DNA from: Bacteroidales bacterium
GTDB lineage: Bacteria; Bacteroidota; Bacteroidia; Bacteroidales; JAOZVK01
Assembly (NCBI GenBank): GCA_029938185.1
Contig: JAOZVK010000001.1
Coordinates: 1-43,990 of the forward strand
DNA length: 43,990 nucleotides
Direction of reading: 5' to 3'
The position numbers and the translations under genes are program-made. The notes beneath the pieces were generated by a model. That model did not search any database. It saw nothing but the letters and a program-made list of their open reading frames with translations, and had not been told where the DNA came from. This document shows, in pieces, positions 5,249-42,147 of this stretch. Each line of letters starts with the position of its first letter. Positions within the stretch are counted from its first letter, which is position 1.

Positions 5249-5380
5249 AATTTTATTTTTATGTTAGGTTACTAAACTTTAAATGGTACAATTATTTAAT
5301 GATACAATGGTACAAAACTTTGATTAATAATTGATAACCATTTGTTAATGTTAAAACTACATCAGTTTAGAGTATATATA

Positions 5381-6190: not shown

Positions 6191-6493
6191 AATTTTAGTA
6201 TTATTTATATATGCAAATATATAAATGATTTTTATTTATTACCAATTGGTTTATATTAATTTTATAAAAAATTATTTTTGTTTATAATGAATTAGCTTAG
6301 GAAATGACGAATTATAAGGCAAAGCGGTCAGACCGGTGTACTTTTGTCCAACTTTAAACGGGTAGCCTAAACTATGCAATGTATTTTATTGCTTTTTCCC
6401 TTTCATGGCGTTCTTGCTTACGAATGCATTTATACATAGGGCGTTGCCCCATGTTAATGCTTATGCCCATTTAGGGCAAAAAAAACTTGAGAA

Positions 6494-6522: not shown

Positions 6523-7164
6523 TTACTCGTCTCTCATATCATATACTTCAACATTTTTATATTTATTTTTATCAAAAACAAACATTGATTCTTTAATTTT
6601 AACATTTGGTTTAAATTGAGTTATTTCAATTATATAATCAACTTCTTCTTTTCCAATAGTTTTTATAGTTCTTATTTGTTTATTTTTTTTATCAACAGCA
6701 AGTTTTATAATCGAATATTTTTTAGTTTTAGGTTTTTCTGGAAATAAATTAATAATAGCATAGCCTTTTGCTTCACCTACATATTTATATTTAAATCCTT
6801 TTTCGTATATTGTTAATACTTTTGATGGACTTAATACTGTTTCGTCGTCTTGATCGGGTTCTGTAATATTGATTTCATTTTCTTTTATTAAATGTGTCCA
6901 AACAGTTTTGCCATTTGAAAATATCTCATTTCCCATAAAAAATAATTTGTATTTATTATCTTTTATATAAATTATTCCTTTTGACGTATCTACAGTATTT
7001 TGAATTTTATTATGTAGCATGTAAAGAAATTTTACTTTTATTGCTGCATATGATTTTGTTTTAGCAGAAACTTCATCTAAAATTTTTTTTGCTTTAGGAT
7101 CTCTTTGGGCAAAAACATTGTTTGTTATTGCAAAAATTAATATTATCAAAAATATTCTTTTCAT
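6523..7164 (-). CDS. lolA: LolA-like outer-membrane lipoprotein carrier protein (start moved to the MKRIFLIIL.. codon)
   Basis: Signal peptide MKRIFLIILIFAITNNVFAQ. The body follows the Bacteroidota LolA-like pattern (KAKKILDEVSAKTKSY.., ..VEVYDMRD) and sits directly downstream of ftsK. The ORF extension 7165-7335 is repeat DNA. Confidence 0.75.
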   Translation of the reverse strand: MKRIFLIILIFAITNNVFAQRDPKAKKILDEVSAKTKSYAAIKVKFLYMLHNKIQNTVDTSKGIIYIKDNKYKLFFMGNEIFSNGKTVWTHLIKENEINITEPDQDDETVLSPSKVLTIYEKGFKYKYVGEAKGYAIINLFPEKPKTKKYSIIKLAVDKKNKQIRTIKTIGKEEVDYIIEITQFKPNVKIKESMFVFDKNKYKNVEVYDMRDE

Positions 7165-7222
7165 TTTTTTATAGTTTTTAAATTTGGTATATAAATTAAA
7201 AAGGTCTTTGACCTGGTTTATT

Positions 7223-7348
7223 GGGCTACATGTAAGAAGTTGGACAGTCTTGTTTATCAGGTGTTTCGTAACATGGTAAAAATCAATCCTGTTAATCCTG
7301 TAAATCCTGTCAAAAAATAAAATAATGTCCAACACTATACGTGTAGCC
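7223..7348. repeat. MITE-like element with terminal inverted repeats GGCTACAYGT..GTTGGACA
   Basis: GGGCTACATGTAAGAAGTTGGACA ... TGTCCAACACTATACGTGTAGCC. The core CAATCCTGTTAATCCTGTAAATCCTGTCAAAAAA is nearly identical to the copy at 31407-31533. Confidence 0.8.
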
Positions 7349-7350
7349 GT

Positions 7351-24353: not shown

Positions 24354-27300
24354 ATGACAAAAAAAGAAATAAAATCCCTTTGGAAAACGGAACATAAAGA
24401 ATATTCTAAACATGAAATAGGTTCGGGAGTTCAAAATTTTGTGAACGAAATATTAATGTCAAATGATTTTTTTAATCTAAAAAAAGGGAAATTATCAGAT
24501 AAGGAAAGTGAACGAAAAAATGAATTTTTGCTGGAAAAAACAAAAAAACAAAAAAGAGCTGATATAATTATTTATGTTGATAATGAAATTATTATTCCGG
24601 TTGAAGTTGAAAAATATAAAAATATAAATGCCGGTCGTCAACAAATTTTCAACTATCAAAAAGCATGGAATAAAAAATACGGAATACTTACAGATGGCTA
24701 CACATGGATTTTTTATAACAATAAAATAGAAATAAAAACATTTACTCTTGATTTTATCATTGAAAAAACTGAATTGTTTTTGCAATTTTGGGAAGAATAT
24801 ACTCAAACAGAAAATTATTACCTTCAATTTTTTGAACGAGTATTAGAAACCAAAGAACAAGAGCAGATTTTAGATATTGACCAAAACAGAAAAGATTTTT
24901 TTGATGATATTACAAAATTAATAGTAAGCTTTGCAAAAAAGTTAAACCTAAAAGGTTATTTTAACGAATTACCGGAAATAGAAAAAGAAAAAAAATCAAT
25001 CGAAATAACTTATGCTTATTTTATTCAATTTATACTTTATAAAACTCTCGCTGATAATGATTTTGATAACTTTGGCAATGATTTTAAAGAACGTTTAGAT
25101 AGAATTACAAATAATCTGAAAAATAAAACTTATGGAGATATACTTTCTGTAATAAAATCAATAAGCATAATAATTTCCAAAAATATTTATAAACCATTTG
25201 TCAAAGAACAAGAAATAATAAACAATACACTTGAAGAACTTTTAATAAAATCTCAAAATGACATAAAAGATATTTCTGTGTGGTTAGATATTTTTGTGTT
25301 CATAAAAAGATATAATTTTGCAAATGTCCAAAATGAAATTTTTGGATATATATATGAAAATTATTTAAAACAACTGTATGAAAATCAGAATAAAGGACAG
25401 TATTTTACTCCACCAGAAGTGGTCGATTTTATGTTGGAAGAAGTCGGTTATTCAAAAGAAAAACTTAAACATAAAAAAAATGATGAAATATCAATAATTG
25501 ACCCATCATGTGGCAGTGGAACATTTCTTTACAGTGCCGTAAGAAATGTTATAAATAGTAAAGAAAATAATAAAAATCTTGCAGATTTAATATCTGACAA
25601 TATTTTCGGACTTGATATAGAAGAGTTTCCGTTATACCTTGCAGAAATGAGTATAATAATGCGAATGTTACCACTGATAATTAACCAAAAATATAATAAT
25701 CCGATTGACAAAAAAATTAAAATATTTAAAACGAAAGACAGTATTTCTGAATTTCAAAATGTAGCACTCAAAAATACATTAACAGATATAAAACAAGAAT
25801 ACGAGAGGAATAAACAACAACTAAGTTTATTTACAAATGAATTAAATCTTGGTTATACAAGTTATATCAGAGACGAAGACGATTTACAAGGCATGAAAAA
25901 AAGTTTGGAAAATCAAGCAGTGCCGAAGATAGACAGAACACGTTTTGATTTTGTAGTAGGAAATCCGCCGTATATCGGTTATAATCAATGTGCAAGACAA
26001 GATATTCAATTTTTCGTTTGGTTACGTGAAAAAAAAGTAAAATTAAATAATGTTTACGGCGTAAATTTACACAGTGTTCCAAACCGTCCAAAGCGTTATC
26101 GTCCAAATCCAAATTTATATGCCTTTTTTACTGCACTCGGAATTGCTTTGCTAAAAGATAAAGGACAATTTGCTTATATTATTCCTCAAACAATACTTTT
26201 TGCCGGCGATTTAGATACCTTACGTTATCATCTTGCAAAATTTCTAACAATTCGTAAAATAATTATTTCTACAAGTAATATGTTTATTGACAGGGGAGTA
26301 AAACAAAATAAAGCTGTCGCAACTTCAAGTTTAATGCTGTTCGTAGAAAAAATACCACCTGCAAAATTACATGAAGTTGAAATAATTTATTACAAACCCA
26401 CTAACAATGACGTAAAAACAGTTATAGAAAATCTAAAAAATAATAAGCATACGGTTAAAAATAAGATACTTCAAAATAAACTTTTAAAAAATACAACAAA
26501 CTGGAATTTTATAATTCACCCGACAAATGAAATTGAATTTTTAATGAATTATAAAAGAAAATTTGAAGACCTATCTATTTATTACTTACATGAATTAGCG
26601 AAAATTCAATTTAATTCAATTTTTTATTTCGACAGCGGATACGGAATTGATGAACAACAAAAATTACAAAAAAAACCGAATACTGAATATTATTTTTTCC
26701 CAAAACTTCCAATAAAAAATTATACAATAACAGAAAATCGTGGTTTCTGGAAAAATGAACGAAAAAATAAAGAAGATATACAATTTATAAAACTACGACA
26801 AGCAAATCAAAAGTATAATTTATTAGACAGCACTTATAAAATACTTTGGTCATACAGCAATCCTAAACGATTTTATTTTACTGATAAAAAAGTAATTTGG
26901 CCTCGAAATCAAATAAATGCAATAGGTTCTGAAAACTTAAACGAGATTTACTTTTTATTTGCAATTTTAAATTCGCCCGTAACTGATTTTGTTTTAAAGC
27001 GACTACTAAAATCCGAGCATGAAAAGAATTTGCAAATTTCAACAAGCTCTGTAAAAGAATTTATAAAATTACCCAAAATAACTGATTTTAATAAGAACAT
27101 AAAAGAAAAAATAATCAAACTTACCGAAGAATTTATTAAAACAGAAAGTTTTAAACTTACTGATTTTATAAATTTAGATAATTTTCTCATACAAAAATTT
27201 GATAATGTATTTATAAGAGACAAAGAATTGATAATAACAAAGAATGAAAAAGAATATAATTTTTTAATGCAAGATAAATTTGATATAATTTCAAAACAAA

Positions 27301-27476
27301 TAGAAGAAATAAAAACACTTTCAGATTTAAAAAATTTACAAATAATTGATTATCTGCAACAAGCAAAAATTAAAGAAAATATTGATAATCTAATATTTGC
27401 ACTTTATTTTAATATAAAAGACGATGAAAATTTAATCGAAAATAAAAAGAAGCACAAACTTTACAAACTCCTTTAA
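24354..27476 (+). CDS. fused type IIG restriction endonuclease / N6-adenine DNA methyltransferase with C-terminal specificity region
   Basis: SAM motif I IIDPSCGSGTFL. Catalytic motif IV VVGNPPYIG. The N-terminal ~150 aa hold a candidate PD-(D/E)xK nuclease signature (RADIIIYVDNEIIIPVEVEKYK). The single polypeptide is 1040 aa. Confidence 0.8.
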   Translation: MTKKEIKSLWKTEHKEYSKHEIGSGVQNFVNEILMSNDFFNLKKGKLSDKESERKNEFLLEKTKKQKRADIIIYVDNEIIIPVEVEKYKNINAGRQQIFNYQKAWNKKYGILTDGYTWIFYNNKIEIKTFTLDFIIEKTELFLQFWEEYTQTENYYLQFFERVLETKEQEQILDIDQNRKDFFDDITKLIVSFAKKLNLKGYFNELPEIEKEKKSIEITYAYFIQFILYKTLADNDFDNFGNDFKERLDRITNNLKNKTYGDILSVIKSISIIISKNIYKPFVKEQEIINNTLEELLIKSQNDIKDISVWLDIFVFIKRYNFANVQNEIFGYIYENYLKQLYENQNKGQYFTPPEVVDFMLEEVGYSKEKLKHKKNDEISIIDPSCGSGTFLYSAVRNVINSKENNKNLADLISDNIFGLDIEEFPLYLAEMSIIMRMLPLIINQKYNNPIDKKIKIFKTKDSISEFQNVALKNTLTDIKQEYERNKQQLSLFTNELNLGYTSYIRDEDDLQGMKKSLENQAVPKIDRTRFDFVVGNPPYIGYNQCARQDIQFFVWLREKKVKLNNVYGVNLHSVPNRPKRYRPNPNLYAFFTALGIALLKDKGQFAYIIPQTILFAGDLDTLRYHLAKFLTIRKIIISTSNMFIDRGVKQNKAVATSSLMLFVEKIPPAKLHEVEIIYYKPTNNDVKTVIENLKNNKHTVKNKILQNKLLKNTTNWNFIIHPTNEIEFLMNYKRKFEDLSIYYLHELAKIQFNSIFYFDSGYGIDEQQKLQKKPNTEYYFFPKLPIKNYTITENRGFWKNERKNKEDIQFIKLRQANQKYNLLDSTYKILWSYSNPKRFYFTDKKVIWPRNQINAIGSENLNEIYFLFAILNSPVTDFVLKRLLKSEHEKNLQISTSSVKEFIKLPKITDFNKNIKEKIIKLTEEFIKTESFKLTDFINLDNFLIQKFDNVFIRDKELIITKNEKEYNFLMQDKFDIISKQIEEIKTLSDLKNLQIIDYLQQAKIKENIDNLIFALYFNIKDDENLIENKKKHKLYKLL

Positions 27477-30081: not shown

Positions 30082-31407
30082 ATGAAGAAAATAATCATAT
30101 ATGTTTTCCTTTTATTTTTCACAATCATAGAAATAAATATAGTTGCACAAAATCAACTAAAAAAACAAACTCCCAAAACTGCCTGTCTAAAAAATATTTC
30201 GATATATAGGGAATTTCAGAAAATAAAGCTATATAACAGAGCTGCTGTTGCTTGGGAAAGTGTTTATACGGAATGTCCTAAAATAAAAAAATATATTTAT
30301 ACTGATGGAGTAAAGATATATAGAAAATTAATTGATAAAGAAAAAAACACAATAAAAAAAGAAAAACTAATAAACAAGTTGTTAGAAATATACGATAATC
30401 GTATAAAGTATTTTGGTGACGAAGGATTTGTAATAGGAAAAAAAGGTTTAGATTTAATAAGATATAGAAAAAAAGATATTGATATTGCATATAAATATCT
30501 TTCTAAATCAATCGAACTAAGAAAGGAAAATGCAGGGGCTGGTGTTGTTTTGGCACATATGCAAATTACAATGAAATTTTATAAGGAGGATAAAAAAAAT
30601 AGTTCCGAAGCAATAAATAATTATATAAATTCATATGATATTATAAGATCACAAATTGTTAAAAATAAGAATAAATTATATATAAAAAAGTTATTAAAAG
30701 TTAAATATAAAATTAATAAATCATTTAAAAGCAGTAATATATATAAAACAAATTTATATAGCGAAATGCTTAAAAATAGATATAAAGAAAACTTTAACGA
30801 TTATAAAAAAATATCATTAATTCAAAATATACTTGAGAGTACAAATAAAATTGAAACAGAATTATACAAAAATGTTTCCTTGCGATTATATGAATACTCC
30901 AAACAAGCTTACTCGTCATACAAAATAGCAAGATATTATATGGTAAATAAAAATTATGTTGAAGCTGTTAAATATCTTGATAAATCAATTGAAACAGAGA
31001 TTAATAGCAAGCGAAAATCTAAATATTATTATGATTTAGCATTAATAAATTTATCTGGCTTAAATAATATTCCCAAAGCAAAAATGCTTGTATCAAAATC
31101 TATCGGCTTAAATAAAAAATATGGAAAAGCATATATTTTACTTGGCGATATATATGTAGCAGCAAGCAGTATATATGGTAATAACAATTTTGAACAAAGG
31201 GCAATGTATTGGTTAGCAGTTGATAAATATAAAATAGCCAAATCAATTGATAAAAAATATACAAAAATTGCTAATAAAAAAATATACCAATACAAGGATT
31301 ATTTTCCTGCCAAAAATGATATATTTTTCAATGGTTATAAAGCTGGTGATAAATATCATATAAAAAGTTGGATAAATGAAACTACCAAAATTAGAGCGAG
31401 AACTTAG
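30082..31407 (+). CDS. secreted helical-repeat (TPR-like) protein, function unknown
   Basis: Signal peptide MKKIIIYVFLLFFTIIEINIVAQ. Helical repeat pattern (YSSYKIARYYMVNKNYVEAVKYLDKSIE..). Confidence 0.65.
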   Translation: MKKIIIYVFLLFFTIIEINIVAQNQLKKQTPKTACLKNISIYREFQKIKLYNRAAVAWESVYTECPKIKKYIYTDGVKIYRKLIDKEKNTIKKEKLINKLLEIYDNRIKYFGDEGFVIGKKGLDLIRYRKKDIDIAYKYLSKSIELRKENAGAGVVLAHMQITMKFYKEDKKNSSEAINNYINSYDIIRSQIVKNKNKLYIKKLLKVKYKINKSFKSSNIYKTNLYSEMLKNRYKENFNDYKKISLIQNILESTNKIETELYKNVSLRLYEYSKQAYSSYKIARYYMVNKNYVEAVKYLDKSIETEINSKRKSKYYYDLALINLSGLNNIPKAKMLVSKSIGLNKKYGKAYILLGDIYVAASSIYGNNNFEQRAMYWLAVDKYKIAKSIDKKYTKIANKKIYQYKDYFPAKNDIFFNGYKAGDKYHIKSWINETTKIRART

Positions 31408-31533
31408 GGCTATCCGCGTAAAGTTGGACAGTGTTGTTTATCAGGTATTTTGTAACAGGATAAAAATCAATCCTGTTAATCCTGTAAATCCTGTCAAAAA
31501 AATAAAATAATGTCCAATACCAAACGTGTAGCC
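31407..31533. repeat. MITE-like element with GGCTAC..TTGGACA terminal inverted repeats (second copy)
   Basis: GGGCTATCCGCGTAAAGTTGGACA...CAATCCTGTTAATCCTGTAAATCCTGTCAAAAAA...TGTCCAATACCAAACGTGTAGCC. It begins on the last base of the TAG stop at 31405-31407. Confidence 0.8.
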
Positions 31534-31679
31534 TAACTTAGCATAGCGAAGCTGCAAAAAAAATTGCTTAATTATTACTTTTAATAAGTCTGATAGTCTT
31601 CAGTCTACAGCAATGAAGACTGAATTTAAGAAAGTTGTATACTTGATTATAAATTGCTTAAACAAACAAAAATAAAATT

Positions 31680-33191
31680 ATGGAAAATCCTTTTGCAGAT
31701 TATGGTTCAATAGTTTTTGGTGACAGATTTATCGGAAGAAAAGAAGAGATAAAGGCTGTTCAAAACAGAATTTTCGGAAAAGCATATGGAAATCTTGCAA
31801 TACAGGGATTACCGAGAATTGGAAAATCAAGTCTTGCGTGGAAAGCAATTCTGGAATATAATGATGAATTTGAAAAAAAACAATTACTTACTATATTGGT
31901 AGAAGTTGGAGAAATAAAAACTACAACTGAATTTTTTAATACAATATTAAGAGAACTTAATAAGACGCTTTCAAAAAAAGGAATAAATGAGTTTAAAGAT
32001 TTGTATACTCAAATTTTACAAAGTCAAAGCCCTACCGAAAAAAGAATGTTAATCAAAGATTATTTTGAATTTATTAAAAATAAAGGCTTTCGAGTAATTT
32101 ATATATTAGATGAATTTGATAGTGTTAGAAATTATTTTGATGCCCACGATTTTCAACTATTAAGAGCATTATCATACAGTCCTAAAACAAAAATATGTAT
32201 TGTAACTATTTCACGACGAAGACTATCCGAAATTGAAGAAAAAGGTGGAGGTGGTTCTAATTTTTATCAAACTTTTAGTGATATTTATCTTGGTATGTAT
32301 AATGACAATGATTTGTCAGAATATTGGGAAAAGTTTTTTAACAGTCGTATTCATATTTCTAAAGAAGGGAAACAAAAGATTTATGAATTTGCAGGTCGGC
32401 ATCCATTTTTATTAGATTTATTCAATTATCATCTTTATAATAATTTAACAGACAACATAATACAATCAATTGACAAAACAAGAGAAAATATAAAATTAAC
32501 TATACTAAACAACTACAAAACTATTTTAGATTTACTGAAAGAAGAAAAATTAGATACAAAGTTATTTCAAATTATTGTTGGTCCAGTTTATAATATTACT
32601 GTCACAGATGCTGAAAAGTTGGAGCGATATAATTTGGTAGTTAAAAGCGAAAGTAAAACAATAGATATAGGAAACAGGACAAAAGGATATGATGCATTCT
32701 CACAGGATTTTGAAAATTTCCTAATAATGAAAAAAAGAGAAATGCCTATTTGGGATTTATGGAGTGAAACCGAAATAAAACTAAGACAAATTGTTTTAAA
32801 ATGGTTAGTTGAAAAATATGGCAGAAACTGGATTCCAAAGTTTAGAAAATTACAAAATAAGGAAAAGCTAATCGCATCGTTTGAAAATATGCAATTACGA
32901 GAAAAAAAGAGCTTTCCTGACACATATTCAGAAAATTTATTAGATTTTACATATCCGGCAGAACTTTTTGATAAGTTTATGCGAGTTGAATGGAAATGGT
33001 TTAAAGAAATATTTGGAAAAGATATGCAACATTGGAAACATAAATTTGAAGTTCTTGCAAGAATACGAAACCCATTAGCTCATAATAAAGAAAACATACT
33101 TAAAGACTTTGAGAAAAATCAAGCAAAAGCATATTGTGAAGAAGTGATTAGTAAGATAGATGCATGGCAAAAAAGACAAGAAATAATATAA
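31680..33191 (+). CDS. P-loop ATPase (archaeal-ATPase/ATPase_2-like) fused to a C-terminal Swt1-type HEPN domain
   Basis: FIGRKEEIKAV.. lead-in. Walker A GLPRIGKSSL. Walker B VIYILDEFDS. C-terminal module ETEIKLRQIVLKWLVEKYGRNW ... LARIRNPLAHNKE, with the Rx4H HEPN motif at 33066-33083. Confidence 0.75.
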   Translation: MENPFADYGSIVFGDRFIGRKEEIKAVQNRIFGKAYGNLAIQGLPRIGKSSLAWKAILEYNDEFEKKQLLTILVEVGEIKTTTEFFNTILRELNKTLSKKGINEFKDLYTQILQSQSPTEKRMLIKDYFEFIKNKGFRVIYILDEFDSVRNYFDAHDFQLLRALSYSPKTKICIVTISRRRLSEIEEKGGGGSNFYQTFSDIYLGMYNDNDLSEYWEKFFNSRIHISKEGKQKIYEFAGRHPFLLDLFNYHLYNNLTDNIIQSIDKTRENIKLTILNNYKTILDLLKEEKLDTKLFQIIVGPVYNITVTDAEKLERYNLVVKSESKTIDIGNRTKGYDAFSQDFENFLIMKKREMPIWDLWSETEIKLRQIVLKWLVEKYGRNWIPKFRKLQNKEKLIASFENMQLREKKSFPDTYSENLLDFTYPAELFDKFMRVEWKWFKEIFGKDMQHWKHKFEVLARIRNPLAHNKENILKDFEKNQAKAYCEEVISKIDAWQKRQEII

Positions 33192-33260
33192 GGTCTTCGA
33201 TTTGTTTATAGTTACTTACGCATGATATATAATTAACTGCAATTCAGAAAATAAGCTCTA
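33192..33260 (+). repeat. GGTCTTCGACC-family element (diverged)
   Basis: GGTCTTCGATTTGTTTATAGTTACTTACGCATGATAT.. starts on the base after the TAA stop at 33189-33191. Confidence 0.6.
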
Positions 33261-34255: not shown

Positions 34256-34678
34256 TTGAAAAAAGAAATGAAAACATTAAAAGACATAGAAAAAAACCTT
34301 TCAGAAAAAGAAAAATATGAACTTACTGAAATAGTAAAACGAATAAAAGCAACTTGTCAGATACGAATGATAATACTTTTTGGTTCGCATGCAAGAGGCG
34401 AACAAGTTGATATTTCGCAATATTCCGAAGGCAAAAAAAGTGATTACGATATTCTGGTTGTTCCAATGTCTTGTACGAAAAAATTACTCAAAAAAGTAAA
34501 ACTATTGCTTAAAAATCTTTTTCATGATATTAACAAAACTGTCAGTTGTTTGGTTGTACCGATTGATAAACTAAACAGTTTATTACTTGAAGGTCAGTAT
34601 TTTTATACAGAAATAAAAAATGAAGGTATTTATCTGTATAAACTGGAAATATTGAATTGGAAAATAGTATTTATATAA
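34256..34678 (+). CDS. minimal nucleotidyltransferase (MNT/MntA-type antitoxin); start TTG 34256 or ATG 34268
   Basis: LFGSHARGEQ ... SDYDILVV (GSxxRG ... DxD pol-beta NTase motif). Confidence 0.75.
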   Translation: MKKEMKTLKDIEKNLSEKEKYELTEIVKRIKATCQIRMIILFGSHARGEQVDISQYSEGKKSDYDILVVPMSCTKKLLKKVKLLLKNLFHDINKTVSCLVVPIDKLNSLLLEGQYFYTEIKNEGIYLYKLEILNWKIVFI

Positions 34679-35121
34679 GTCCAAAACGAGAAAGAGAAAT
34701 TGCTGAAGAATATTATGAATTATGGTTTGGTCAGGCAAATGATTTTATGATGTGTCAGTTCGATGATATTAAAGCTAACAGGATTAGATTAGCAGCTTTT
34801 CATCTACAGCAATGTGCCGAAAGTTGTTATAAATGTGTAGAACTGGTGCTAACACGTTACTGTCCCAAAGAACATCTATTAACGGAGCTGAAAAAGAGAG
34901 TTATAAAACTAAATTCTGAATTTGAAATACCATTTCCAAGCGAAACTTCTGAACAAATTGTGTTGTTTAATCATTTGGATTTTGCCTATACTGGTGCAAG
35001 ATATAATAAAGATTATACAGTAACAATCAAACAATTAGACTATTGGCAAAAAGAAAATAAAAAACTTATGGATATTACTGAAAAAATCTGTACTATGCAT
35101 ATTGAAAAATTGGCTCTCTAA
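34657..35121 (+). CDS. HEPN-domain protein (HepT-type toxin partner of the MNT)
   Basis: Overlaps the NTase ORF by 22 nt. Helical protein with AAFHLQQCAESCYK and DFAYTGARYNKDY, typical of HEPN proteins paired with MNTs. Confidence 0.65.
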   Translation: MENSIYISPKREREIAEEYYELWFGQANDFMMCQFDDIKANRIRLAAFHLQQCAESCYKCVELVLTRYCPKEHLLTELKKRVIKLNSEFEIPFPSETSEQIVLFNHLDFAYTGARYNKDYTVTIKQLDYWQKENKKLMDITEKICTMHIEKLAL

Positions 35122-35224: not shown

Positions 35225-36661
35225 ATGAAAAAAGAAAATTTAAAAAATCAGGAAGAAGACAAAACTTTGCTTGAAGGAAGTGAAAATTTGACAGATAAAA
35301 ATAATAATGAAATTGTAGAGGAAGAAAAAAAAACTTTGAAAGACAAGATTATTAATCAAAAAACAGCCTTGCTTGTTGCCGGTGGCGGATTGATTGCAGG
35401 GACTGGATTTGCAGCAGGAACAAAGCAAAATGATGAAATACTTATTGATACCGACAATGACAACATTGCTGATGCTGTTTTGATAGACGAAAACGAAGAT
35501 GGTATTTATAACACTGAAACCGAAATTGAGGAGATAGAGGAAGTTGAGGAAGTTGAAACCGAACCCGAAATTGAAACAAACAGCGAAAACTCAAATAGTC
35601 ATACTTTTAATACAGATACAGCACCTCACACAAGTGAAGGAACGGTTACTGATGATATGTCGTTTTCGGAAGCATTTGGGGCGGCAAGAACTGAGCTTGG
35701 TGCCGGTGGTGTATTTGAGTGGGACGGTCAAGCTTACAGCACTTTTTATGCTGAAGAAGTTGACGAAAACATGAATCCAACAGTTGATTATACAACTACA
35801 AACGACCCTGAATATATTAATAATAACAATTCTGAAAATGATAATGAAAATACCGAAATAAATAACAATACAGATAATGACACAGATATAGATGATAACA
35901 CAGAATTAGAAGATGATACATTTGATGTTGAAAATATAGATGAAATAATTGACAACAGTGTTGTAGATACAGGAACGGTGGAATACGATGGTGAAGTGTC
36001 GAATGATATTCCTGATGATGTTTCTAATACCGAACTTGATAATCACAATAACGAATTTTCCAGTTCAAATGATAATTTTGACGATGAAGGTGGTGATGAC
36101 ATAAATCTAACATTTAACTTTACAAACAATACTGAAAATAACAATACTGAAAATAATAATATTGTAAATAACAATACTGAAAATAATAATATTGTAAATA
36201 ATAATATTGAAAATAATGATATTGAAAATAATGATGTTATAATTATTGATAATGAAAACACTGAAATAAATAATAATACTGTTGAAATTGAAAACACAGA
36301 AATAAACAACAATACTACTGAAAACTCAGATAATAATACAAGTAATGAAACAGATACAGACGATATTGTGGACTTAGATAATGATGTAGAGTTAGATGGT
36401 GATTTAGAAATAGGTGATGGTGCAGAATTAGATGATGATGTAGAGTTAGATGGTGATTTAGGATTAGATGATGATGTAGTTGAAGTTGAAGACATTGATG
36501 AAATAATCGGCAACGGTGTTGTAGATACAGGAACAGTGGAATATGACGGTGAAGTATCAAATGATGTTACTGATGATGTGCCAGATACCGAACTTGATAA
36601 TCACAACGACGACCTTGCAGCTTTAGATGATGATTTTGATGATATGAACGACTGGGCATAA
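35225..36661 (+). CDS. extremely acidic D/E/N-rich repeat protein with one predicted TM segment
   Basis: TM-like TALLVAGGGLIAGTGFAAGT. Conserved-looking block DDMSFSEAFGAARTELGAGGVFEWDGQAYSTFYAEE. A ~47-aa unit is duplicated (..IDEII.N.VVDTGTVEYDGEVSND..D.ELDNHN..) and there are N/E/I microsatellite-like tracts. Confidence 0.7.
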   Translation: MKKENLKNQEEDKTLLEGSENLTDKNNNEIVEEEKKTLKDKIINQKTALLVAGGGLIAGTGFAAGTKQNDEILIDTDNDNIADAVLIDENEDGIYNTETEIEEIEEVEEVETEPEIETNSENSNSHTFNTDTAPHTSEGTVTDDMSFSEAFGAARTELGAGGVFEWDGQAYSTFYAEEVDENMNPTVDYTTTNDPEYINNNNSENDNENTEINNNTDNDTDIDDNTELEDDTFDVENIDEIIDNSVVDTGTVEYDGEVSNDIPDDVSNTELDNHNNEFSSSNDNFDDEGGDDINLTFNFTNNTENNNTENNNIVNNNTENNNIVNNNIENNDIENNDVIIIDNENTEINNNTVEIENTEINNNTTENSDNNTSNETDTDDIVDLDNDVELDGDLEIGDGAELDDDVELDGDLGLDDDVVEVEDIDEIIGNGVVDTGTVEYDGEVSNDVTDDVPDTELDNHNDDLAALDDDFDDMNDWA

Positions 36662-36665
36662 ATTA

Positions 36666-36698
36666 AACTTTGACAAAGTTTAAAACTTTGTCAAAGTT
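36666..36698. repeat. REP-like 33-nt palindrome
   Basis: AACTTTGACAAAGTT-TAA-AACTTTGTCAAAGTT. Confidence 0.9.
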
Positions 36699-36856
36699 GG
36701 AGTTACATAGTTTAACAATGTAAATTTATAACCGTTTGCAATATAATATTACATTATAATGGTCTCATAAATTATTATAGCATTCATAAAGTCTCGGTGT
36801 AGTTAATAAAAAAACTATGCAGTTAAAAAAAGAGCCACACCAAGACATTTCTTACA

Positions 36857-36888
36857 AGTTTGACAAAGTTCAAAACTTTGTCAAACTT
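36857..36888. repeat. REP-like palindrome (slightly degenerate)
   Basis: AGTTTGACAAAGTT-CAAA-ACTTTGTCAAACT. It supplies the spurious TTG start at 36860. Confidence 0.85.
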
Positions 36889-36910
36889 AAATAAACAAAA
36901 TCAAAAAATT

Positions 36911-37414
36911 ATGAAAGTAAAATGTTCAAAATGTGGTAGTATTTTGTTAATTGCCGAAAACAAATTACCAAAAAATAAAAAAAAGGCAATGGTAAAATGT
37001 AAAAAATGTAACCATTCAATTGTATTTACAATTCCTAATGCCGGTGAGCCAGAAGGTGAAAAAACTGAAATTGGCGATGCTAATGAACTAAAAATTCAAA
37101 ATGTAAAACTTATTGAAACAAAAACCGGTAAAGAATATATCTTAAAAATTGGAAAAAATATTATTGGAAGAAAAACAGATATTTCTATTGAGGGAGATAA
37201 ATACATTAGCCGTTTACATTGCCTTGTGGAAATGAAAAAACAAACTTGGGGCATCGAACTCACAATAAGCGATGATGGAACAGAAACAGGAAAGCCGAGC
37301 ACAAATGGAACTTTTTATAAAGATGAAAAAATATCAAAATTTGATAAAATTGTGCTAAAAAATGGTGACAAAATACGTGTAGGACGCACCGATTTAACTG
37401 TAAAATTTTATTAA
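36911..37414 (+). CDS. MJ0042-type zinc-ribbon plus FHA domain protein
   Basis: MKVKCSKCGSILL..VKCKKCNHSIVF zinc ribbon. FHA signature IGRKTDISIEGDKYISRLHC...STNGTFYKDEKI...LKNGDKIRVG. Confidence 0.85.
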   Translation: MKVKCSKCGSILLIAENKLPKNKKKAMVKCKKCNHSIVFTIPNAGEPEGEKTEIGDANELKIQNVKLIETKTGKEYILKIGKNIIGRKTDISIEGDKYISRLHCLVEMKKQTWGIELTISDDGTETGKPSTNGTFYKDEKISKFDKIVLKNGDKIRVGRTDLTVKFY

Positions 37415-37522
37415 GGTCTTCTATCTATTTATAGTTGCTTACGCATTAGTACAAAGACAATTTAATCAGGAAATTATGAATAAGTAAATGTCGAAAAAAT
37501 TTTGTAACAGTACTTAATTGAA
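37415..37522 (+). repeat. GGTCTTCGACC-family element, full-length
   Basis: GGTCTTCTATCTATTTATAGTTGCTTACGCATTAGTACAAAGAC...GTCGAAAAAATTTTGTAACAGTACTTAATTG starts on the base after the TAA stop at 37412-37414. Confidence 0.8.
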
Positions 37523-37533
37523 CAATTAAAATC

Positions 37534-37683
37534 GGGGCTAACAATAGTATCATCTTTACGGATAGCCTACTGTCGGCGTGGCTCAAAGCCACACCGACAG
37601 TTTTAGGACAAGACAGTAAGAGAACAAACAGGTGAAAAACACCTGCCGAGCGCAATGAAGTATTCAACTTTATGTGGGTAGCC
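37534..37683 (-). repeat. composite GC-rich repeat with two hairpins, ending ..AACTTTATGTGGGTAGCC
   Basis: Hairpin CTGTCGGCGTGGC-TCAAA-GCCACACCGACAG (37570-37600). Hairpin CAGGTG-AAAAA-CACCTG. The tail GAGCGCAATGAAGTATTCAACTTTATGTGGGTAGCC recurs at 42148-42205 and 43875-43931. Confidence 0.75.
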
Positions 37684-37733
37684 AAACAGGCTATGCTATT
37701 ATTAACATTGTGAAAACTTTTAAATAATTTAAA

Positions 37734-38495
37734 ATGAATATGAGAAAAATCTTATTAATACTTTTTTTTACTATTTTTTTGCAACAAACTAATGCACAAA
37801 AAAAATATGTTTTAATAGCAGGAGTTGCAGATTATAAAGATGATAGGCTGGATTTGCACTATTGCGACGACGATGCATACCGTTTTTATGCATATATGAA
37901 AAGTACAAAAGGTGGAAGTGTGCAGGACAATAATATTGCTATACTGGTAGACGAGGCTGCAACACGTAAAAATATTTTAATGACTATGCATAAAATTTTT
38001 TCTAAAGCAGGAAAAAATGATATGCTTATTTTTTATTTTTCGGGACATGGCGGAAAAGGCTATTTTTGCCCATACGAAACAAGTAAAAACCCTAAAAGTT
38101 TGTTGTTACACAACGATATAAAAAAAATATTCAAAAAACATCCTGCAAAAAGCAAAATTGTATTTGGTGATGCATGCCATTCGGGTAGTATTTTTGAAGG
38201 TACAAGCCACACTGTACCAAATGGAACCGCTGTAAAAACAAATGTTGTAATATTAATGTCATCAAAATATAGCGAAACCTCACAAGAAAATAAAAAACTC
38301 AGACAAGGTACTTTTTCTTATTATCTTTTGCGTGGATTACAAGGTAAAGCAGATAGAAATAAAGATAAAAACATAACTTTACAAGAACTTTTTCCATATA
38401 TTAAAGCAAATGTTCTTAACTTTACAAAAAATAGGCAAACACCATTTATTGAAGGTAAAGCACCTGCAAATATGATAATTGGTAGATTAAAATAA
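37734..38495 (+). CDS. caspase-like (peptidase C14) protease with N-terminal signal peptide
   Basis: Signal peptide MNMRKILLILFFTIFLQQTNAQ. Catalytic His motif FYFSGHGG and Cys motif GDACHSG in the canonical order. Confidence 0.85.
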   Translation: MNMRKILLILFFTIFLQQTNAQKKYVLIAGVADYKDDRLDLHYCDDDAYRFYAYMKSTKGGSVQDNNIAILVDEAATRKNILMTMHKIFSKAGKNDMLIFYFSGHGGKGYFCPYETSKNPKSLLLHNDIKKIFKKHPAKSKIVFGDACHSGSIFEGTSHTVPNGTAVKTNVVILMSSKYSETSQENKKLRQGTFSYYLLRGLQGKADRNKDKNITLQELFPYIKANVLNFTKNRQTPFIEGKAPANMIIGRLK

Positions 38496-38526
38496 CTTTG
38501 ACAAAGTTCCAAACTTTGTCAAAGTT
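38494..38526. repeat. REP-like 33-nt palindrome overlapping the caspase stop codon
   Basis: AACTTTGACAAAGTT-CCA-AACTTTGTCAAAGTT. Its first two bases are the AA of the TAA at 38493-38495. Confidence 0.9.
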
Positions 38527-38565
38527 AAAAGTTAAAAAGTTGAAAAATCAATAAAAATAAAAATT

Positions 38566-38724
38566 ATGTTAGCACTAAAAGGAATATACGAAAATGGAAC
38601 AATAAAATTTGATAAACCAATAAATATAAAAAAAGCTGTAAAAGTTATTGTTATATTTATTGATGAAGAAATACAACTAAACTATCAAACAGTTGATACC
38701 AATAAAGAACATATTGCAAAATAA
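38566..38724 (+). CDS. small DUF104/AF2212-like antitoxin-type protein (52 aa), not in the supplied ORF track
   Basis: MLALKGIYENGTIKFDKPINIKKAVKVIVIFIDEE resembles the IYENGV.KP...L.EG..V.I pattern of small antitoxin-like proteins. No toxin partner is adjacent. Confidence 0.45.
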   Translation: MLALKGIYENGTIKFDKPINIKKAVKVIVIFIDEEIQLNYQTVDTNKEHIAK

Positions 38725-38845
38725 CCGGAAACATTTTTATACTCCGATTGAAACAAAAAAGTAACATTTAATACAATATACAATTTGTAAGTTTGTACAA
38801 GCTTTTCAGATAAAACAAAAGTCAAAAATATTTAATTTAATAATT

Positions 38846-40144
38846 ATGATTAACGATAAAGTGTTAAACTACAAAATTACTGTCTCGATAGGTAAAGGCG
38901 GTATGGCAGAGGTATTTAAAGCCGAACATCAAACTTTTGAGGATAGAAAAGTGGCAATAAAAATTCTCGACCCTGTGCTTGCTCGTAAAGAAAATATTGC
39001 GACACGATTTGTGAACGAAGCCAAAATTATGGCTAAATTGGAGCATCAGAATATTGTAAAAGTGGTTGATTTTGAGAAACGCACAGATATGCTCGCCATA
39101 ATAATGGAACTTCTCGAAGGAAAAAGCCTGACAGGATATATAAAACAAAAAGGAAAACTGCAAAAACAAGAAGCCATAGAAATTTTCAAACAAGCTTTGA
39201 GTGCTTTTGAATTTGCCCACAAACACAATGTAGTTCACCGTGATGTAAAACCCTCAAATATTTTTATAGAGACCCAAAAAGGCAATAATGTTAAAATACT
39301 TGATTTTGGTATAGCAAAACTATTAGAAAGCAATGCAAACGACACAAACACAGGTGCACAAATGGGAACACCTGTTTATATGAGTCCCGAACAAGTAAGA
39401 GACAGCAAAAATATTGACAGCCGAAGTGATATATACTCTTTGGGCGTAGTATTGTATTATATGCTTGCCGGAAAACCACCTTATGACAGTACAAGTCTCT
39501 CGAATTTTGATATTTACACAAAAATTGTAAATGAGCCGGTACCTGAACTGAGCACTCACCCCGAAATTAACAAAATAATAAAAAAAGCAACCGCCAAAAA
39601 ACCTGCTGATAGATACCAAACATGCAATGAGTTTGAAAAAGCACTCGAAGTAAACTTTGACAAAGTTCCAAACTTTGTCAAAGTTGAAACAAACAACGAA
39701 GATGAAACCCTAATAGACAACGAACAAAAAAACTTTGACAAAGTTCCAAACTTTGTCAAAGTTGAACCAAACGAAGATGTAACCCTAATAGACGACCCCG
39801 AAACTGAACTTTGGGACAAAATAAAAAACAAAACAGATATACAACTGTTTAAAAACTATTTGCAAAAATACCCAAATGGAAGATATAAAGAACAGGCAAG
39901 TAAAATAATTGATGCTAAAAACTTTGAAAAACAAAAAAACTTTGACAAAGTTCCAAACTTTGTCAAAGTTGAAACAAACAACGAAGATGAAACCTTAATT
40001 GACGACCCCGAAACCGAACTTTGGGACAAAATAAAAAACAAAACAGACATACAACTATTTAAAAACTACTTGCAAAAATACACAAATGGAAGATATAAAA
40101 AACTGGCAAGTAAAATAATTGATGCTAAAAACTTTGAAAAATAA
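38846..40144 (+). CDS. Hanks-type Ser/Thr protein kinase followed by 70-aa tandem repeats, terminated by a TAA inside a repeat
   Basis: GKGGMAEVF, VAIKIL, HRDVKPSNIF, DFGIAK and GTPVYMSPE. From 39653 the repeat units begin. The stop at 40142-40144 is CAA in the paralogous repeat copies. Confidence 0.9.
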   Translation: MINDKVLNYKITVSIGKGGMAEVFKAEHQTFEDRKVAIKILDPVLARKENIATRFVNEAKIMAKLEHQNIVKVVDFEKRTDMLAIIMELLEGKSLTGYIKQKGKLQKQEAIEIFKQALSAFEFAHKHNVVHRDVKPSNIFIETQKGNNVKILDFGIAKLLESNANDTNTGAQMGTPVYMSPEQVRDSKNIDSRSDIYSLGVVLYYMLAGKPPYDSTSLSNFDIYTKIVNEPVPELSTHPEINKIIKKATAKKPADRYQTCNEFEKALEVNFDKVPNFVKVETNNEDETLIDNEQKNFDKVPNFVKVEPNEDVTLIDDPETELWDKIKNKTDIQLFKNYLQKYPNGRYKEQASKIIDAKNFEKQKNFDKVPNFVKVETNNEDETLIDDPETELWDKIKNKTDIQLFKNYLQKYTNGRYKKLASKIIDAKNFEK

Positions 40145-40526
40145 AAAAACTTTGACAAAGTTCCAAACTTTGTCAAAGTTGAGACAAGCAACAATGATGA
40201 AACCTTAATTGATGACCCCGAAACCGAACTTTGGGAACAAATTAAAAATAAAAACGATATACAACTATTTAAAAACTATTTACAAAAATACCCAAATGGA
40301 AGATATAAAGAACAGGCAAGTAAAATAATTGATGCTAAAAACTTTGAAAAACAAAAAAACTTTGACAAAGTTCCAAACTTTGTCAAAGTTGAGACAAGCA
40401 ACAATGATGAAACCTTAATTGATGACCCCGAAACCGAACTTTGGGAACAAATTAAAAATAAAAACGATATACAACTATTTAAAAACTACTTGCAAAAATA
40501 CCCAAATGGTAGATATAAAAAACTGG
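39653..40526 (+). repeat. coding tandem repeat, 210-bp unit (one partial, three full, one partial), each unit starting with the REP-like palindrome
   Basis: Palindromes at 39653, 39731, 39938, 40148 and 40358. Spacing is exactly 210 bp for the last three. The unit encodes NFDKVPNFVKVE..ETLIDDPETELW..IKNK.DIQLFKNYLQKYPNGRYK..A.KIIDAKNFEKQK. Confidence 0.9.
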
Positions 40527-41308
40527 CAATAATTGAACAACCATCTGAGAATATAAAAAACTATACAGAAACTGTAAAAAGTGTAAGTTTTGATATGAAA
40601 GCTGTAGAAGGCGGAACATTCCAAATGGGAAGTAACGAAAACAGTGATGAAAAACCAATACACAGCGTAACAGTCCACAGTTATAATATGGGTAAATACG
40701 AAGTAACACAAAAACTATGGAAAGCAGTAATGGACAACAACCCAAGCCATTTTAAAGGAGACAATAGACCTGTTGAACAAGTTAGCTGGGATGATATACA
40801 AAAGTTTCTTAAAAAGCTAAACAAAATGACTAGTAAAAACTATCGCTTGCCCACAGAAACAGAATGGGAATATGCAGCCAGTGGAGGTAGCAAAATCCAA
40901 TCAACAATAGGTCGCATTTTGGAATGGAGGGAACATGTAGCTAGGGGTAGCACACACCAACAAAAATGGGCAGGTACAAATAGAAAAAGCTTGCTTGGCT
41001 CGTATGCTTGGTATAGCGACAACAGTGGCAGTAAAACACACAATGTAGGAACAAAACGTCCAAATAAACTTGGAATATACGATATGAGCGGAAACGTATG
41101 GGAATGGTGTCAAGACCATTGGCACAGTAATTACAACGGTGCACCAACAAATGGAAGAGCATGGACAAGTGGTAGTAGTTCGCGCCGTGTTATTCGTGGC
41201 GGCAGTTGGTATTACAACGCCAGTGGTTGTCGTGTGGCTTATCGGTACAGCTACAGTCAGGGCGAGCGTGCCTACAACTTGGGCTTTCGCCTTGTGTTTG
41301 TCCCGTAG
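40490..41308 (+). CDS. FGE-sulfatase (SUMF1/formylglycine-generating-enzyme-like) domain; same frame as the kinase ORF and open back to 40145
   Basis: GGTFQMGS..., YNMGKYEVTQKLW, RLPTETEWEYAASGG, GIYDMSGNVWEWCQD, RVIRGGSW and NLGFRLV. Confidence 0.85.
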   Translation: MQKYPNGRYKKLAIIEQPSENIKNYTETVKSVSFDMKAVEGGTFQMGSNENSDEKPIHSVTVHSYNMGKYEVTQKLWKAVMDNNPSHFKGDNRPVEQVSWDDIQKFLKKLNKMTSKNYRLPTETEWEYAASGGSKIQSTIGRILEWREHVARGSTHQQKWAGTNRKSLLGSYAWYSDNSGSKTHNVGTKRPNKLGIYDMSGNVWEWCQDHWHSNYNGAPTNGRAWTSGSSSRRVIRGGSWYYNASGCRVAYRYSYSQGERAYNLGFRLVFVP

Positions 41309-41334
41309 TTTAATGAATGCTTTTCTGGAAGCTC

Positions 41335-41352
41335 AACTTTGACAAAGTTCAA
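41335..41352. repeat. half REP-like palindrome (left arm only) just upstream of the RAYT-like gene
   Basis: AACTTTGACAAAGTTCAA with no matching right arm. Confidence 0.7.
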
Positions 41353-41386
41353 ACCTAAAATTTAAACCAACAAACTAAATTATAAG

Positions 41387-42004
41387 ATGAAATATTATAC
41401 AGAACAATTAGAACCCGATAAATATTATCACATTTATAATCATGCAGTAGGAAAACTGAATTTATTTATAAACAATGATAATTATGATTTTTTTCTTAAA
41501 AAATATTCACAACATATTTCACCTGTTGCCGATACTTTTGCTTATTGTTTAATGCCAAATCATTTTCATTTTGCTGTGCGTATAAAATCTGGTTCGAGTA
41601 TTTCAAGTTTGACAAAGTTTCAAAACTTTGTCAAAGTTCGCCATCGCAGTATAGAATTTTTTGTCAGTAAACAATTTTCTAATTTATTCAGCTCATATTC
41701 TCAGTCGTTCAACAAACAACAAAACCGAAGGGGTAGCCTGTTTGAGCGTCCTTTTAAAAGATTACATATAATTGACGATAAATATTTTCGTTCAATAATA
41801 CATTATATTCATTATAACCCTGTTCATCACGGTTTTGTTGATGATTTACGCAATTGGAAATATTCATCTTTCGAGAGTTTTTTTTCAGATAAAGCAACTC
41901 AACTAAAACGTGAAGAAGTAATAAATTGGTTCGATAATAAAGAAAATTTTTATGAATTTCATAAAAAAGAAATAGATGAAAAATTGATATTAGAGCTTGA
42001 ATAA
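41387..42004 (+). CDS. Y1 HUH transposase, IS200-like / REP-associated tyrosine transposase (RAYT) type, carrying an in-frame palindrome insertion
   Basis: YHIYNHAVGKLNLF, HUH motif MPNHFHFAV, GSLFERPFKR and catalytic-Tyr region HYIHYNPVHHGFV. Confidence 0.75.
   Translation: MKYYTEQLEPDKYYHIYNHAVGKLNLFINNDNYDFFLKKYSQHISPVADTFAYCLMPNHFHFAVRIKSGSSISSLTKFQNFVKVRHRSIEFFVSKQFSNLFSSYSQSFNKQQNRRGSLFERPFKRLHIIDDKYFRSIIHYIHYNPVHHGFVDDLRNWKYSSFESFFSDKATQLKREEVINWFDNKENFYEFHKKEIDEKLILELE
41606..41638. repeat. REP-like palindrome inside the RAYT-like coding sequence
   Basis: AGTTTGACAAAGTT-TCAAA-ACTTTGTCAAAGTT, translated as SLTKFQNFVKV between the HUH motif and the Tyr motif. Confidence 0.9.
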
Positions 42005-42038
42005 ATTTTTATTTAACTTAATAATCAACCTAATAATC

Positions 42039-42071
42039 AACTTTGACAAAGTTTAAAACTTTGTCAAAGTT
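42039..42071. repeat. REP-like 33-nt palindrome downstream of the RAYT-like gene
   Basis: AACTTTGACAAAGTT-TAA-AACTTTGTCAAAGTT. Confidence 0.9.
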
Positions 42072-42147
42072 TAAACAGACAAACTAAATATTAACTGTAT
42101 TTTGCTAAATCTAAATCAAATATTGGCTCAGAGAATAAGCAGTCAGA

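Follow-up and report, generated by a model that had tools for sequence, protein, structure and literature searches.

An orphaned ATPase-HEPN gene in a Bacteroidales contig, related to the second component of an uncharacterised two-gene CSD-TPR-STAND/STAND-HEPN module

The gene considered here lies in a contig of a Bacteroidales bacterium (NCBI GenBank assembly GCA_029938185.1, contig JAOZVK010000001.1, positions 1 to 43,990 of the forward strand), and the term window denotes this whole stretch of 43,990 nucleotides. It is a complete open reading frame (ORF) on the plus strand, 31680..33191, which starts with ATG, stops with TAA and encodes a protein of 503 residues, predicted to consist of an NTPase core, a helical lid, a winged helix and a C-terminal HEPN domain; full-length homologues exist. 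The genes around it come in the order nusA/rimP, an amidohydrolase, a type IIG restriction-modification (RM) gene, two TPR genes, the ORF itself, an ABC-2 permease, an MNT + HEPN pair, an acidic repeat protein and an FHA protein. A preliminary description, made from the letters of the window alone, had placed the ORF at exactly these coordinates, and the motifs that it had read there were all recovered: the Walker A sequence GLPRIGKSS (residues 43-51, 31806-31832), the Walker B sequence (Y)ILDEFD (residues 141-147, 32100-32120) and the R-x4-H motif RNPLAH (residues 463-468, 33066-33083), all on the plus strand. An RFIGR motif (residues 16-20) can also be read from the translation. When 45 full-length homologues with 36-90% identity were aligned, all three motifs proved to be conserved; G48, K49, D144-E145-F146-D147, N464, P465, A467 and H468 are invariant and R463 is nearly so, which argues that the motifs are genuine conserved features and not chance resemblances. 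A search of 5.8 billion proteins gave 437 matches, the best 120 of which are nearly all full-length at about 500 residues; among the matches listed were one identical protein and one with 90% identity from a Bacteroidota metagenome-assembled genome (MAG). These proteins carry public names such as 'hypothetical' or 'ATP-binding protein'.

An AlphaFold2 model built from the alignment, with a mean predicted local distance difference test score (pLDDT) of 87.9 over the whole protein, was used together with profile searches to delimit the domains. Residues 1-205 (31680..32294, plus strand) form a Rossmann-like P-loop NTPase core, as indicated by Pfam, the invariant columns, the model and Foldseek; this core includes the NPFADYG/RFIGR motifs in its N-terminal part and a TISRRR segment (32205-22) on the same strand. 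The helical lid that follows (residues 206-290, 32295..32549, plus strand), defined by the secondary structure of the model, contains a GxP-like motif, AGRHPFLLD (32391-32417), in which H241 is nearly invariant and P242 and D246 are invariant. Residues 291-340 (32550..32699, plus strand) are modelled as a winged helix, with helices at 292-299 and 308-316 and strands at 320-329 and 333-339 (DSSP assignment), in the same position as in PAB2304, ORC and the nucleotide-binding oligomerisation domains (NODs) of STAND proteins matched by Foldseek.

The archaeal-ATPase/STAND-like layout that had been proposed for this N-terminus agrees with the profile and structure searches. In Pfam the window protein matches AAA_22, AAA_16 and ATPase_2 at E values of about 1e-5. 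ATPase_2 (PF01637) scores 23.9 bits (E 4.3e-5), below its gathering cut-off of 33.2 bits, and is the commonest Pfam match in the family, reaching E<1e-3 in 33 of the 45 homologues (best 7e-7) when these were scanned singly; AAA_22 was found in 25, AAA_16 in 23 and nSTAND2 in 12 of them (the last at E<1e-3), and NB-ARC, NACHT or nSTAND1 in a few. The nSTAND2 model (PF20702, cut-off 24 bits) fails on the window protein itself, with 12.3 bits and E=0.1. The window protein is a relative of the ATPase_2 family that stands outside its curated membership. Against the sequences of the PDB, the family profile matched the NB-ARC domain of the plant proteins NRC3/NRC2 (E 1e-4), and the whole protein gave matches to its N-terminus only (Cdc6, E 0.022). 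When residues 1-340 of the model were compared with the PDB by Foldseek, PAB2304 (2qen, E 2.7e-9) and SSO1545 (2fna, E 2.4e-8) ranked best, with template modelling (TM) scores on the target of 0.61-0.63 and a sequence identity of 16-17%, followed by ORC/Cdc6 and then by the NODs of NRC4, NRC3 and Avs4 (8dgf). STAND proteins are reportedly defined (a definition ascribed to Leipe et al. 2004) by a Walker A of the form GxxxxGK[ST], a Walker B of the form hhhhD[DE], a GxP-containing helical domain and a winged helix, and are also said to carry a large C-terminal repeat-type sensor (TPR, WD40 or LRR) in the same protein. The window protein has the P-loop motifs (GLPRIGKSS, YILDEFD) and the GxP helical domain followed by a winged helix, with ATPase_2 proteins and ORC/Cdc6 still the better structural matches, and a repeat-type sensor of any of these three kinds is absent by Pfam and from the model. 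Throughout the family, Walker A is kept in 70 and Walker B in 69 of 73 members.

The remainder of the protein (residues 341-503, 32700..33188, plus strand) is modelled as an all-alpha domain, whose first long helix bears the conserved E365/R369 and which, modelled separately, is again all-alpha with a pLDDT of 90.6. The proposal that it is a HEPN domain of the Swt1 type holds at the level of the family and falls short for the window protein taken alone, in which HEPN_Swt1 (PF18731, cut-off 27.5 bits) reaches 15.1 bits and E=0.029 over residues 368-473. The same model matches 27 of the 45 homologues at E<1e-3 (best 6.6e-8), and the score exceeds the cut-off in two longer relatives, P0181 at 39.2 and P0144 at 28.1 bits. 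Furthermore, the HEPN domain of a relative matches the PADLOC candidate PDC-M34B (E 4.5e-10), and an R[NT]PxAH sequence is present in 68 of the 73 family members. Considering these family-level matches, the two relatives above the cut-off, the PDC-M34B match and the conserved R-x4-H motif, the assignment to Swt1-type HEPN is supported for the family. The outcome that the preliminary description had named as fatal to this assignment, a profile search with no HEPN hit, did not occur, thanks to these family-level matches. An alignment profile of the C-terminal domain run against the 5.8 billion proteins returned only fragments of the same family, and against PDB sequences it gave no match.

The key to the nature of this gene was provided by the loci of its relatives. 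From species-representative genomes, 80 loci were taken and their ORFs were called, and 86 loci entered the tally of neighbouring genes. The ATPase-HEPN gene is usually the second gene of a two-gene operon, preceded directly upstream, on the same strand, by a large gene that is present at 69 of the 86 loci; at 13 there is none and 4 lie at contig ends. In most loci the two genes overlap or lie close together (-179 to +21 nt). The upstream proteins, 57 of which constitute one homologous cluster, are 1300-1800 residues long and combine a cold-shock domain (CSD) and TPRs with a C-terminal nSTAND1/ATPase_2/AAA_16 P-loop module and a winged helix; a search with the partner profile added copies that are split, interrupted by an insertion sequence (IS), short (about 520 residues) or fused to the HEPN protein, the fusions being L080 (1998 residues), L082 (2408) and P0268 (2297). 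All 57 partner sequences retain the Walker A (GQKRSGKS) and 56 of them the Walker B (hhIDEF), and homology between the ATPase region of the partner and the N-terminal part of the HEPN proteins is recognisable at a best E of about 1e-10, which together imply that the operon encodes two paralogous, apparently active NTPases. PADLOC yielded for the partner of relatives a domain-level match to CSD_V only. Judging from these loci, the two-gene operon is the ancestral and usual form of the family and the single-gene state is derived.

The C-terminal position of the module is itself variable. In P0253, P0264 and P0244 the NTPase and winged helix-turn-helix (wHTH) module is fused to a Ser/Thr kinase or to a CSD instead of HEPN, and a third variant has a longer HEPN-containing region. 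Conflict systems typically vary in their effector, and such swapped C-termini favour a role in biological conflict. In seven Bacteroidales-type relatives (L025, L045, L067, L079, L081, L083 and L085), a gene for a WYL + WCX protein of about 367 residues follows the module directly, at about 11.5-13.0 kb of the respective loci; it may encode a dedicated transcriptional regulator like those of other defence systems.

The window lacks the partner. Neither an ORF search of the 44 kb nor a six-frame search of 27.4-31.7 kb revealed a partner homologue, and none was found in flanks of up to 10 kb at other orphan loci. The notion of a stand-alone, single-gene system, as which the gene had been described, is consequently not supported in that form: the window copy is, on comparison with its relatives, a derived orphan of a two-gene module and is under strong purifying selection. 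Several states of the partner were recognised in the relatives. It is intact in L096 (56% identical in the HEPN protein; partner of 1532 residues) and in the Phaeodactylibacter locus L008 (51%; 1566 residues). In L094 (76%) it is truncated at its N-terminus, with profile positions 916-1550 left and an in-frame TGA; in L093 (90%) two fragments cover profile positions 1406-1550; and in L002 (66%) and L098 (49%) relics of 24-40 residues, corresponding to the extreme C-terminus of the partner, immediately precede the start codon (E 1e-5 and 1e-9). The partner is entirely gone from the window and from L001, L005, L009, L012, L089, L091 and L097. On a neighbour-joining tree (without support values) these states are interleaved within the clade of the window, which indicates that the loss was recurrent, and the different sizes of the relics argue, independently of the tree, for separate loss events. 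A single ancestral loss, hinted at by a first tree, was discarded in view of the intact partner of L096 and the relics of L093, L094, L002 and L098.

As side observations on these loci, the partner remnant of L094 spans nt 408-2393 with its TGA at nt 1029, and the public gene call reads through it as one 648-residue product. L007, from a Phaeodactylibacter xiamenensis genome, has a partner split by an IS3-family insertion (5231-6366), and L008 is a metagenomic contig with an identical HEPN protein and an intact partner. The Phaeodactylibacter locus also holds a DUF4365 gene, transposase fragments, a type I RM system and a Macro-domain gene.

What remains of the partner in the window is at most a trace. 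The 60 nt before the start codon (31620..31679, plus strand) are a possible relic of the 3' end of the partner gene: when the last 45-90 nt before the ATG were compared with the partner 3' ends of L093 and L094, the weak nucleotide similarity gave z scores of 2.6-3.0, with 4-12 of 1000 shuffles scoring as high, and at the protein level no partner signal is left upstream of the window ORF. In contrast to this decay, the ATPase-HEPN gene itself is well maintained. Pairwise Nei-Gojobori estimates for six genes of the orphan clade yielded ratios of nonsynonymous to synonymous substitution rates (dN/dS) of 0.07-0.19 at dS 0.7-3.4 (0.07 at dS 0.74 for the window gene versus that of its 90% relative L093); the ATPase, lid/wHTH and HEPN segments are each under constraint; and every orphan copy is uninterrupted and keeps all catalytic motifs. 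These values bear on the idea that the gene is a non-functional leftover of a decaying two-gene system, a view suggested by the visible decay of the partner in relatives (truncation, in-frame TGA, fragments) and by the insertion of a putative miniature inverted-repeat transposable element (MITE) at the former partner site. Given an ORF that stays intact with its motifs in every orphan lineage, and the low dN/dS, this idea is largely refuted and we regard it as very improbable.

The MITE-like element (31407..31533, no strand assigned) measures 127 nt, has the terminal inverted repeats GGGCTA..TAGCC and TTGGACA..TGTCCAA, can fold into a long hairpin (-36 kcal/mol) and occupies the site where relatives have the partner gene. 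It also carries an internal AATCCTGT(T/A)A triplet. A second copy, about 90% identical, is located at about 7223-7349, overlapping the 5' end of the ORF 6523-7335 on the minus strand. Within the 272-nt gap between the upstream TPR gene and the ATPase-HEPN ORF, the MITE-like element is accompanied by a hairpin of the form AGTCTTCA-N11-TGAAGACT in the 5' leader, with an 8-bp stem and -11 kcal/mol, which is unique in the window and lies at 31595..31621 (plus strand), some 10 nt away from the position first reported (31604-31632). The third element overlaps the stop codon of the ORF (about 33182..33234, no strand assigned; TAAGGTCTTCGA...) and resembles a repetitive extragenic palindromic (REP) sequence. 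It occurs in at least 13 copies over the 44-kb contig, beside unrelated genes that include nusA and rimP, and such a contig-wide spread does not mark this particular gene as mobile. Thus, all the repeats that had been described as bracketing the gene are real, and the argument for mobility drawn from them is weakened by the distribution of the stop-codon element, which may be a contig-wide terminator or REP-type repeat. Sites of this element are found, for instance, at 2562, 5465, 12404, 15547, 15662, 16893, 20433, 21960, 27629, 29512, 33178, 35176 and 37401; its core is TAAGGTCTTCGACCTATTTA, it extends over about 50-110 nt in some copies, and it appears in both orientations, as a rule starting at the stop codon of a neighbouring gene or overlapping it. 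Neither the window nor the 5' intergenic region, hairpin included, gave any Rfam match at gathering thresholds, the matches at E<1 being at chance level; upstream of the ORF the Bacteroidetes-type promoter TAnnTTTG was found with one mismatch only, and a scan for sigma-70 promoters and terminators did no better than on shuffled sequences.

The gene had been said to lie between a type IIG RM gene and an MNT/HEPN pair. Both are there, and neither is adjacent: the RM gene, of the Eco57I/MmeI type (24354-27476), is 4.2 kb upstream with the two TPR genes in between, and the ABC-2 permease gene separates the ORF from the MNT + HEPN (PF05168) pair (34256-35121). The defence-type genes near the ORF are interleaved with others of ordinary or housekeeping type, which makes the case for a defence island weak, as do the GC content and the plasmid, phage and PADLOC searches reported below. 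The upstream TPR gene was compared, as a test of synteny, with the TPR gene upstream of the 66% relative, and no similarity was found, so that synteny was rejected. Further features of the window were recorded as observations in their own right. The plus-strand gene at 35225-36661 encodes an extremely acidic, Asn-rich protein of 478 residues, with 15-nt and 18-nt tandem repeats and two 214-nt direct repeats and with no Pfam or PADLOC match. A palindromic motif, AACTTTGACAAAGTT(C/T)(C/A)AAACTTTGTCAAAGTT, is present in 9-11 copies within 5.5 kb (36662-42107, 11 sites), in intergenic positions and inside three 210-nt coding tandem repeats (39770-40489), with sites inside the ORF 38846-40144 among them; it looks like an operator or a repeat-protein feature. 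Finally, the 832-residue product of 7351-9849 (minus strand) matches the C-terminal region of PADLOC SspH (E 2.6e-54) as well as the mad8 and HerA models, and is probably an FtsK/HerA-type translocase.

The family as a whole is rare and patchily distributed. At E<=1e-30 it comprises 581 clusters among 1.84 billion representatives of 50% identity clusters, and with the patterns used it was matched 87 times among 185,579 species genomes, being absent from most Bacteroidota. Its hosts belong to at least 10 phyla or groups, which include Bacteroidota, Chloroflexota, Latescibacterota, Poribacteria, Cyanobacteria, Acidobacteriota, Proteobacteria, Bacillota and Nitrospirota, together with one archaeal MAG. 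Among 133 immediate neighbours of the module there are 7-9 WYL regulators, 5 RecD/PIF1-like helicases that also match PDC-S68, 4 PDC-M16A proteins and 3 AriA/PtuA-like ATPases, in addition to mad2, mad3, mad8, AbiLi and NsnB (these families overlap on some proteins, so that they yield no exact total), and the Phaeodactylibacter copy is flanked by IS elements, DUF4365 and a type I RM system. These defence-type neighbours and the C-terminal swaps described above favour a conflict role for the module.

Among known systems, a close likeness is to the two-gene nSTAND2 counter-invader system with a C-terminal HEPN predicted by Kaur, Iyer, Burroughs and Aravind (2021, eLife 10:e70394, PMC8195603). 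Both are computational predictions, alike in logic and in the order of domains, of a two-gene operon in which each protein contains a paralogous STAND-type NTPase with a winged helix, the second protein ends in HEPN, the effector position is variable and some copies lack the first gene. However, in the system of Kaur and coworkers the NTPase motifs of the HEPN-bearing protein are eroded, whereas Walker A and B are intact here; TPRs separate the winged helix from the HEPN domain, which in the window protein follows directly; and the partner is a short protein ('??+STAND+wHTH'), in contrast to the 1300-1800 residues with CSD and TPRs, and nSTAND1 rather than nSTAND2, found in this family. Their members are mostly from Proteobacteria and 530-636 residues long, while those described here come from Bacteroidota, Chloroflexota, Latescibacterota and others. 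An upstream STAND+wHTH gene, by which their operon is recognised, is missing from the window, although the wider family has an upstream partner. The domain vocabulary is also familiar from the survey of Anantharaman et al. (2013, Biol Direct 8:15, PMC3710099), in which Swt1-type HEPN domains were found combined with STAND ATPases, TPRs and S1/cold-shock OB-folds. The likeness to these Swt1-like HEPN proteins (PF18731) lies in the family-level profile membership, the R-x4-H motif and the same set of domains in the two-gene system; the bacterial STAND-HEPN example given there has an N-terminal HEPN within one polypeptide, whereas here the HEPN is C-terminal and the CSD and TPRs reside on a separate protein.

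The ATPase_2 proteins PAB2304 and SSO1545 share the P-loop, lid and winged-helix layout and differ in having no effector domain and no known function. Avs/AVAST proteins resemble the window protein in joining a STAND-like NOD to a nuclease-type effector, and activation by oligomerisation would be expected in both cases. Nevertheless, an Avs protein combines all its parts in one chain, the effector at the N-terminus and, at the C-terminus, a large TPR sensor to which phage proteins bind, unlike the window protein, with its C-terminal effector, no sensor in cis, and TPR and CSD regions confined to a separate and here deleted partner; none of the PADLOC Avs models matched it. In the anticodon nucleases PrrC and RloC, an N-terminal P-loop NTPase regulates a C-terminal HEPN-type RNase that stays latent until triggered and brings about abortive infection; both use ABC-type ATPases, and PrrC is encoded inside a type Ic RM (prr) locus. 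The window protein differs in the class of its ATPase, with no ABC_tran match, and the nearest RM gene is of type IIG and lies across two TPR genes.

All these observations can be integrated in a model in which the window gene, orphaned and still under constraint, is the ATPase-HEPN component of an uncharacterised CSD-TPR-STAND/STAND-HEPN module, for which a role as an immune or stress RNase is plausible; the probability of this reading was estimated at roughly 55%. The gene product would, by a slight balance of the evidence, be an NTP-switched RNase in which HEPN is fused directly to an ATPase_2/STAND-like module. In the proposed mechanism, drawn by analogy with STAND and AAA+ switches and with HEPN RNases, the NTPase modules would oligomerise on binding or exchange of nucleotide. 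A hetero-oligomer would presumably arise in the two-gene form, nucleated by the paralogous ATPase of the partner, whose CSD/TPR region would be the likely sensor of an RNA or protein cue. In the Bacteroidota clade of the window the partner was lost more than once in separate events, by decay or deletion, and in the window itself the MITE-like element now takes its place. In the orphan, the protein would form homo-oligomers, and its activation would be either homotypic or driven by the winged helix and the lid. The active sites of HEPN RNases form at dimer interfaces. As in those enzymes, oligomerisation would juxtapose HEPN domains and create a composite active site, and the assembled site might cleave cellular or invader RNA, leading to arrest of growth or of infection.

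A number of observations weigh against this reading, some of which concern the protein. By itself it is sub-threshold in Pfam for every domain, and it has no recognisable sensor domain. Foldseek searches with the C-terminal model against the PDB and BFVD found no significant match (best PDB E 0.75): the E values of the HepT toxins 6m6w, 8yuf and 8xdj exceeded 2, with TM scores no higher than 0.30-0.35, and that of a phage protein annotated as 'HEPN domain-containing' was 1.2. This lack of a significant match to solved HEPN RNases would suit a non-catalytic helical domain binding RNA or a ligand, with the protein acting as an NTP-dependent regulator, as would the loss of the R/H motif in two relatives (L049 and L062) and the view that the HEPN domain of eukaryotic Swt1 is inactive (PMC3710099). 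The same survey classes bacterial Swt1-type HEPN domains as catalytically active, and the R-x4-H motif, kept by the large majority of the family, is intact in the window protein, so that a non-catalytic domain appears improbable.

The second group of observations concerns the genomic setting. The preliminary description had suggested a search with known defence models, and none of the 5027 models of PADLOC-DB v2.0.0 matched the window protein at E<=1; neither the 72,556 plasmid records nor the 50,697 phage records contained a homologue; the GC content is about 27%, as in the flanks; and the orphan loci lie mostly amid genes of housekeeping type (RnfC, PspA/CesT, thioredoxin/M24 peptidase, MFS, PNP, ABC ATPase), with the genomes of P0020 and P0021 sharing one locus for the gene. 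Together with the strong purifying selection that persists without the partner, these facts (the plasmid and phage searches apart) can be read as the signature of a domesticated housekeeping or stress RNase, co-opted in the Bacteroidota clade after the loss of the partner and no longer engaged in defence. What speaks for the orphaned-component reading instead is that orphan loci differ between lineages, that the gene is missing from most Bacteroidota, that partner loss was recurrent and not one ancient shift, and that an RM gene and an MNT/HEPN pair are a few kb away from the window gene; domestication was hence rated as unlikely. For the same reasons the gene does not behave as a universally syntenic core gene, conservation of that kind having been named beforehand as evidence against a defence role; it is rare, patchy and found at variable loci, the one shared by P0020 and P0021 notwithstanding. 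The role in defence or abortive infection first put forward for it is plausible only, favoured by the defence-type neighbours in relatives and the patchy spread and disfavoured by the lack of a PADLOC match, and for the orphan we would put a defence function at roughly even odds.

The last point against the orphaned-component reading is that only a contig of 44 kb has been seen, so that a partner could be encoded elsewhere in the genome. In that case the gene would still belong to a two-component system, with its partner or a substitute at a distance, and would be inert alone. That the paralogous ATPases are nearly always co-operonic or fused suggests an obligate hetero-oligomer and lends this explanation some weight. 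On the other hand, the relics and truncated partners of close relatives stand directly upstream of the gene, a sign of decay in place and not of relocation, the flanks of the other orphan loci are as empty of partner homologues as the window, and the orphan state persists across lineages separated by dS >1. This alternative was judged somewhat less likely still than domestication.

This orphan clade offers a natural experiment on whether one half of a STAND pair, the effector, can function or be given a new use once the sensor is gone, a question that bears on the evolution of the helper/sensor pairs of nucleotide-binding leucine-rich repeat (NLR)-like proteins. A tentative and rather doubtful extension of the model is that the ATPase-wHTH-HEPN protein of about 500 residues may be an autonomous, minimal NOD-effector, that its origin may exemplify a recurrent evolutionary path along which a two-component immune pair of sensor and effector gives rise to an NTP-gated RNase that is self-sufficient or serves a new purpose, and that the parent module, with its kinase or CSD variants, may be an unrecognised anti-phage system. 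Were the module a defence system, it would add, in phyla that are thinly covered by defence catalogues (Bacteroidota, Chloroflexota, Latescibacterota and Poribacteria), an architecture of two paralogous STAND-like ATPases that both have intact Walker motifs. The RNA-binding CSD and the TPR sensor region would belong to one of them, and an exchangeable C-terminal domain (HEPN, kinase or CSD) to the other. Meanwhile, members of the family are better annotated as 'ATPase-HEPN, second component of a CSD-TPR-STAND operon' than by the generic name 'ATP-binding protein'.

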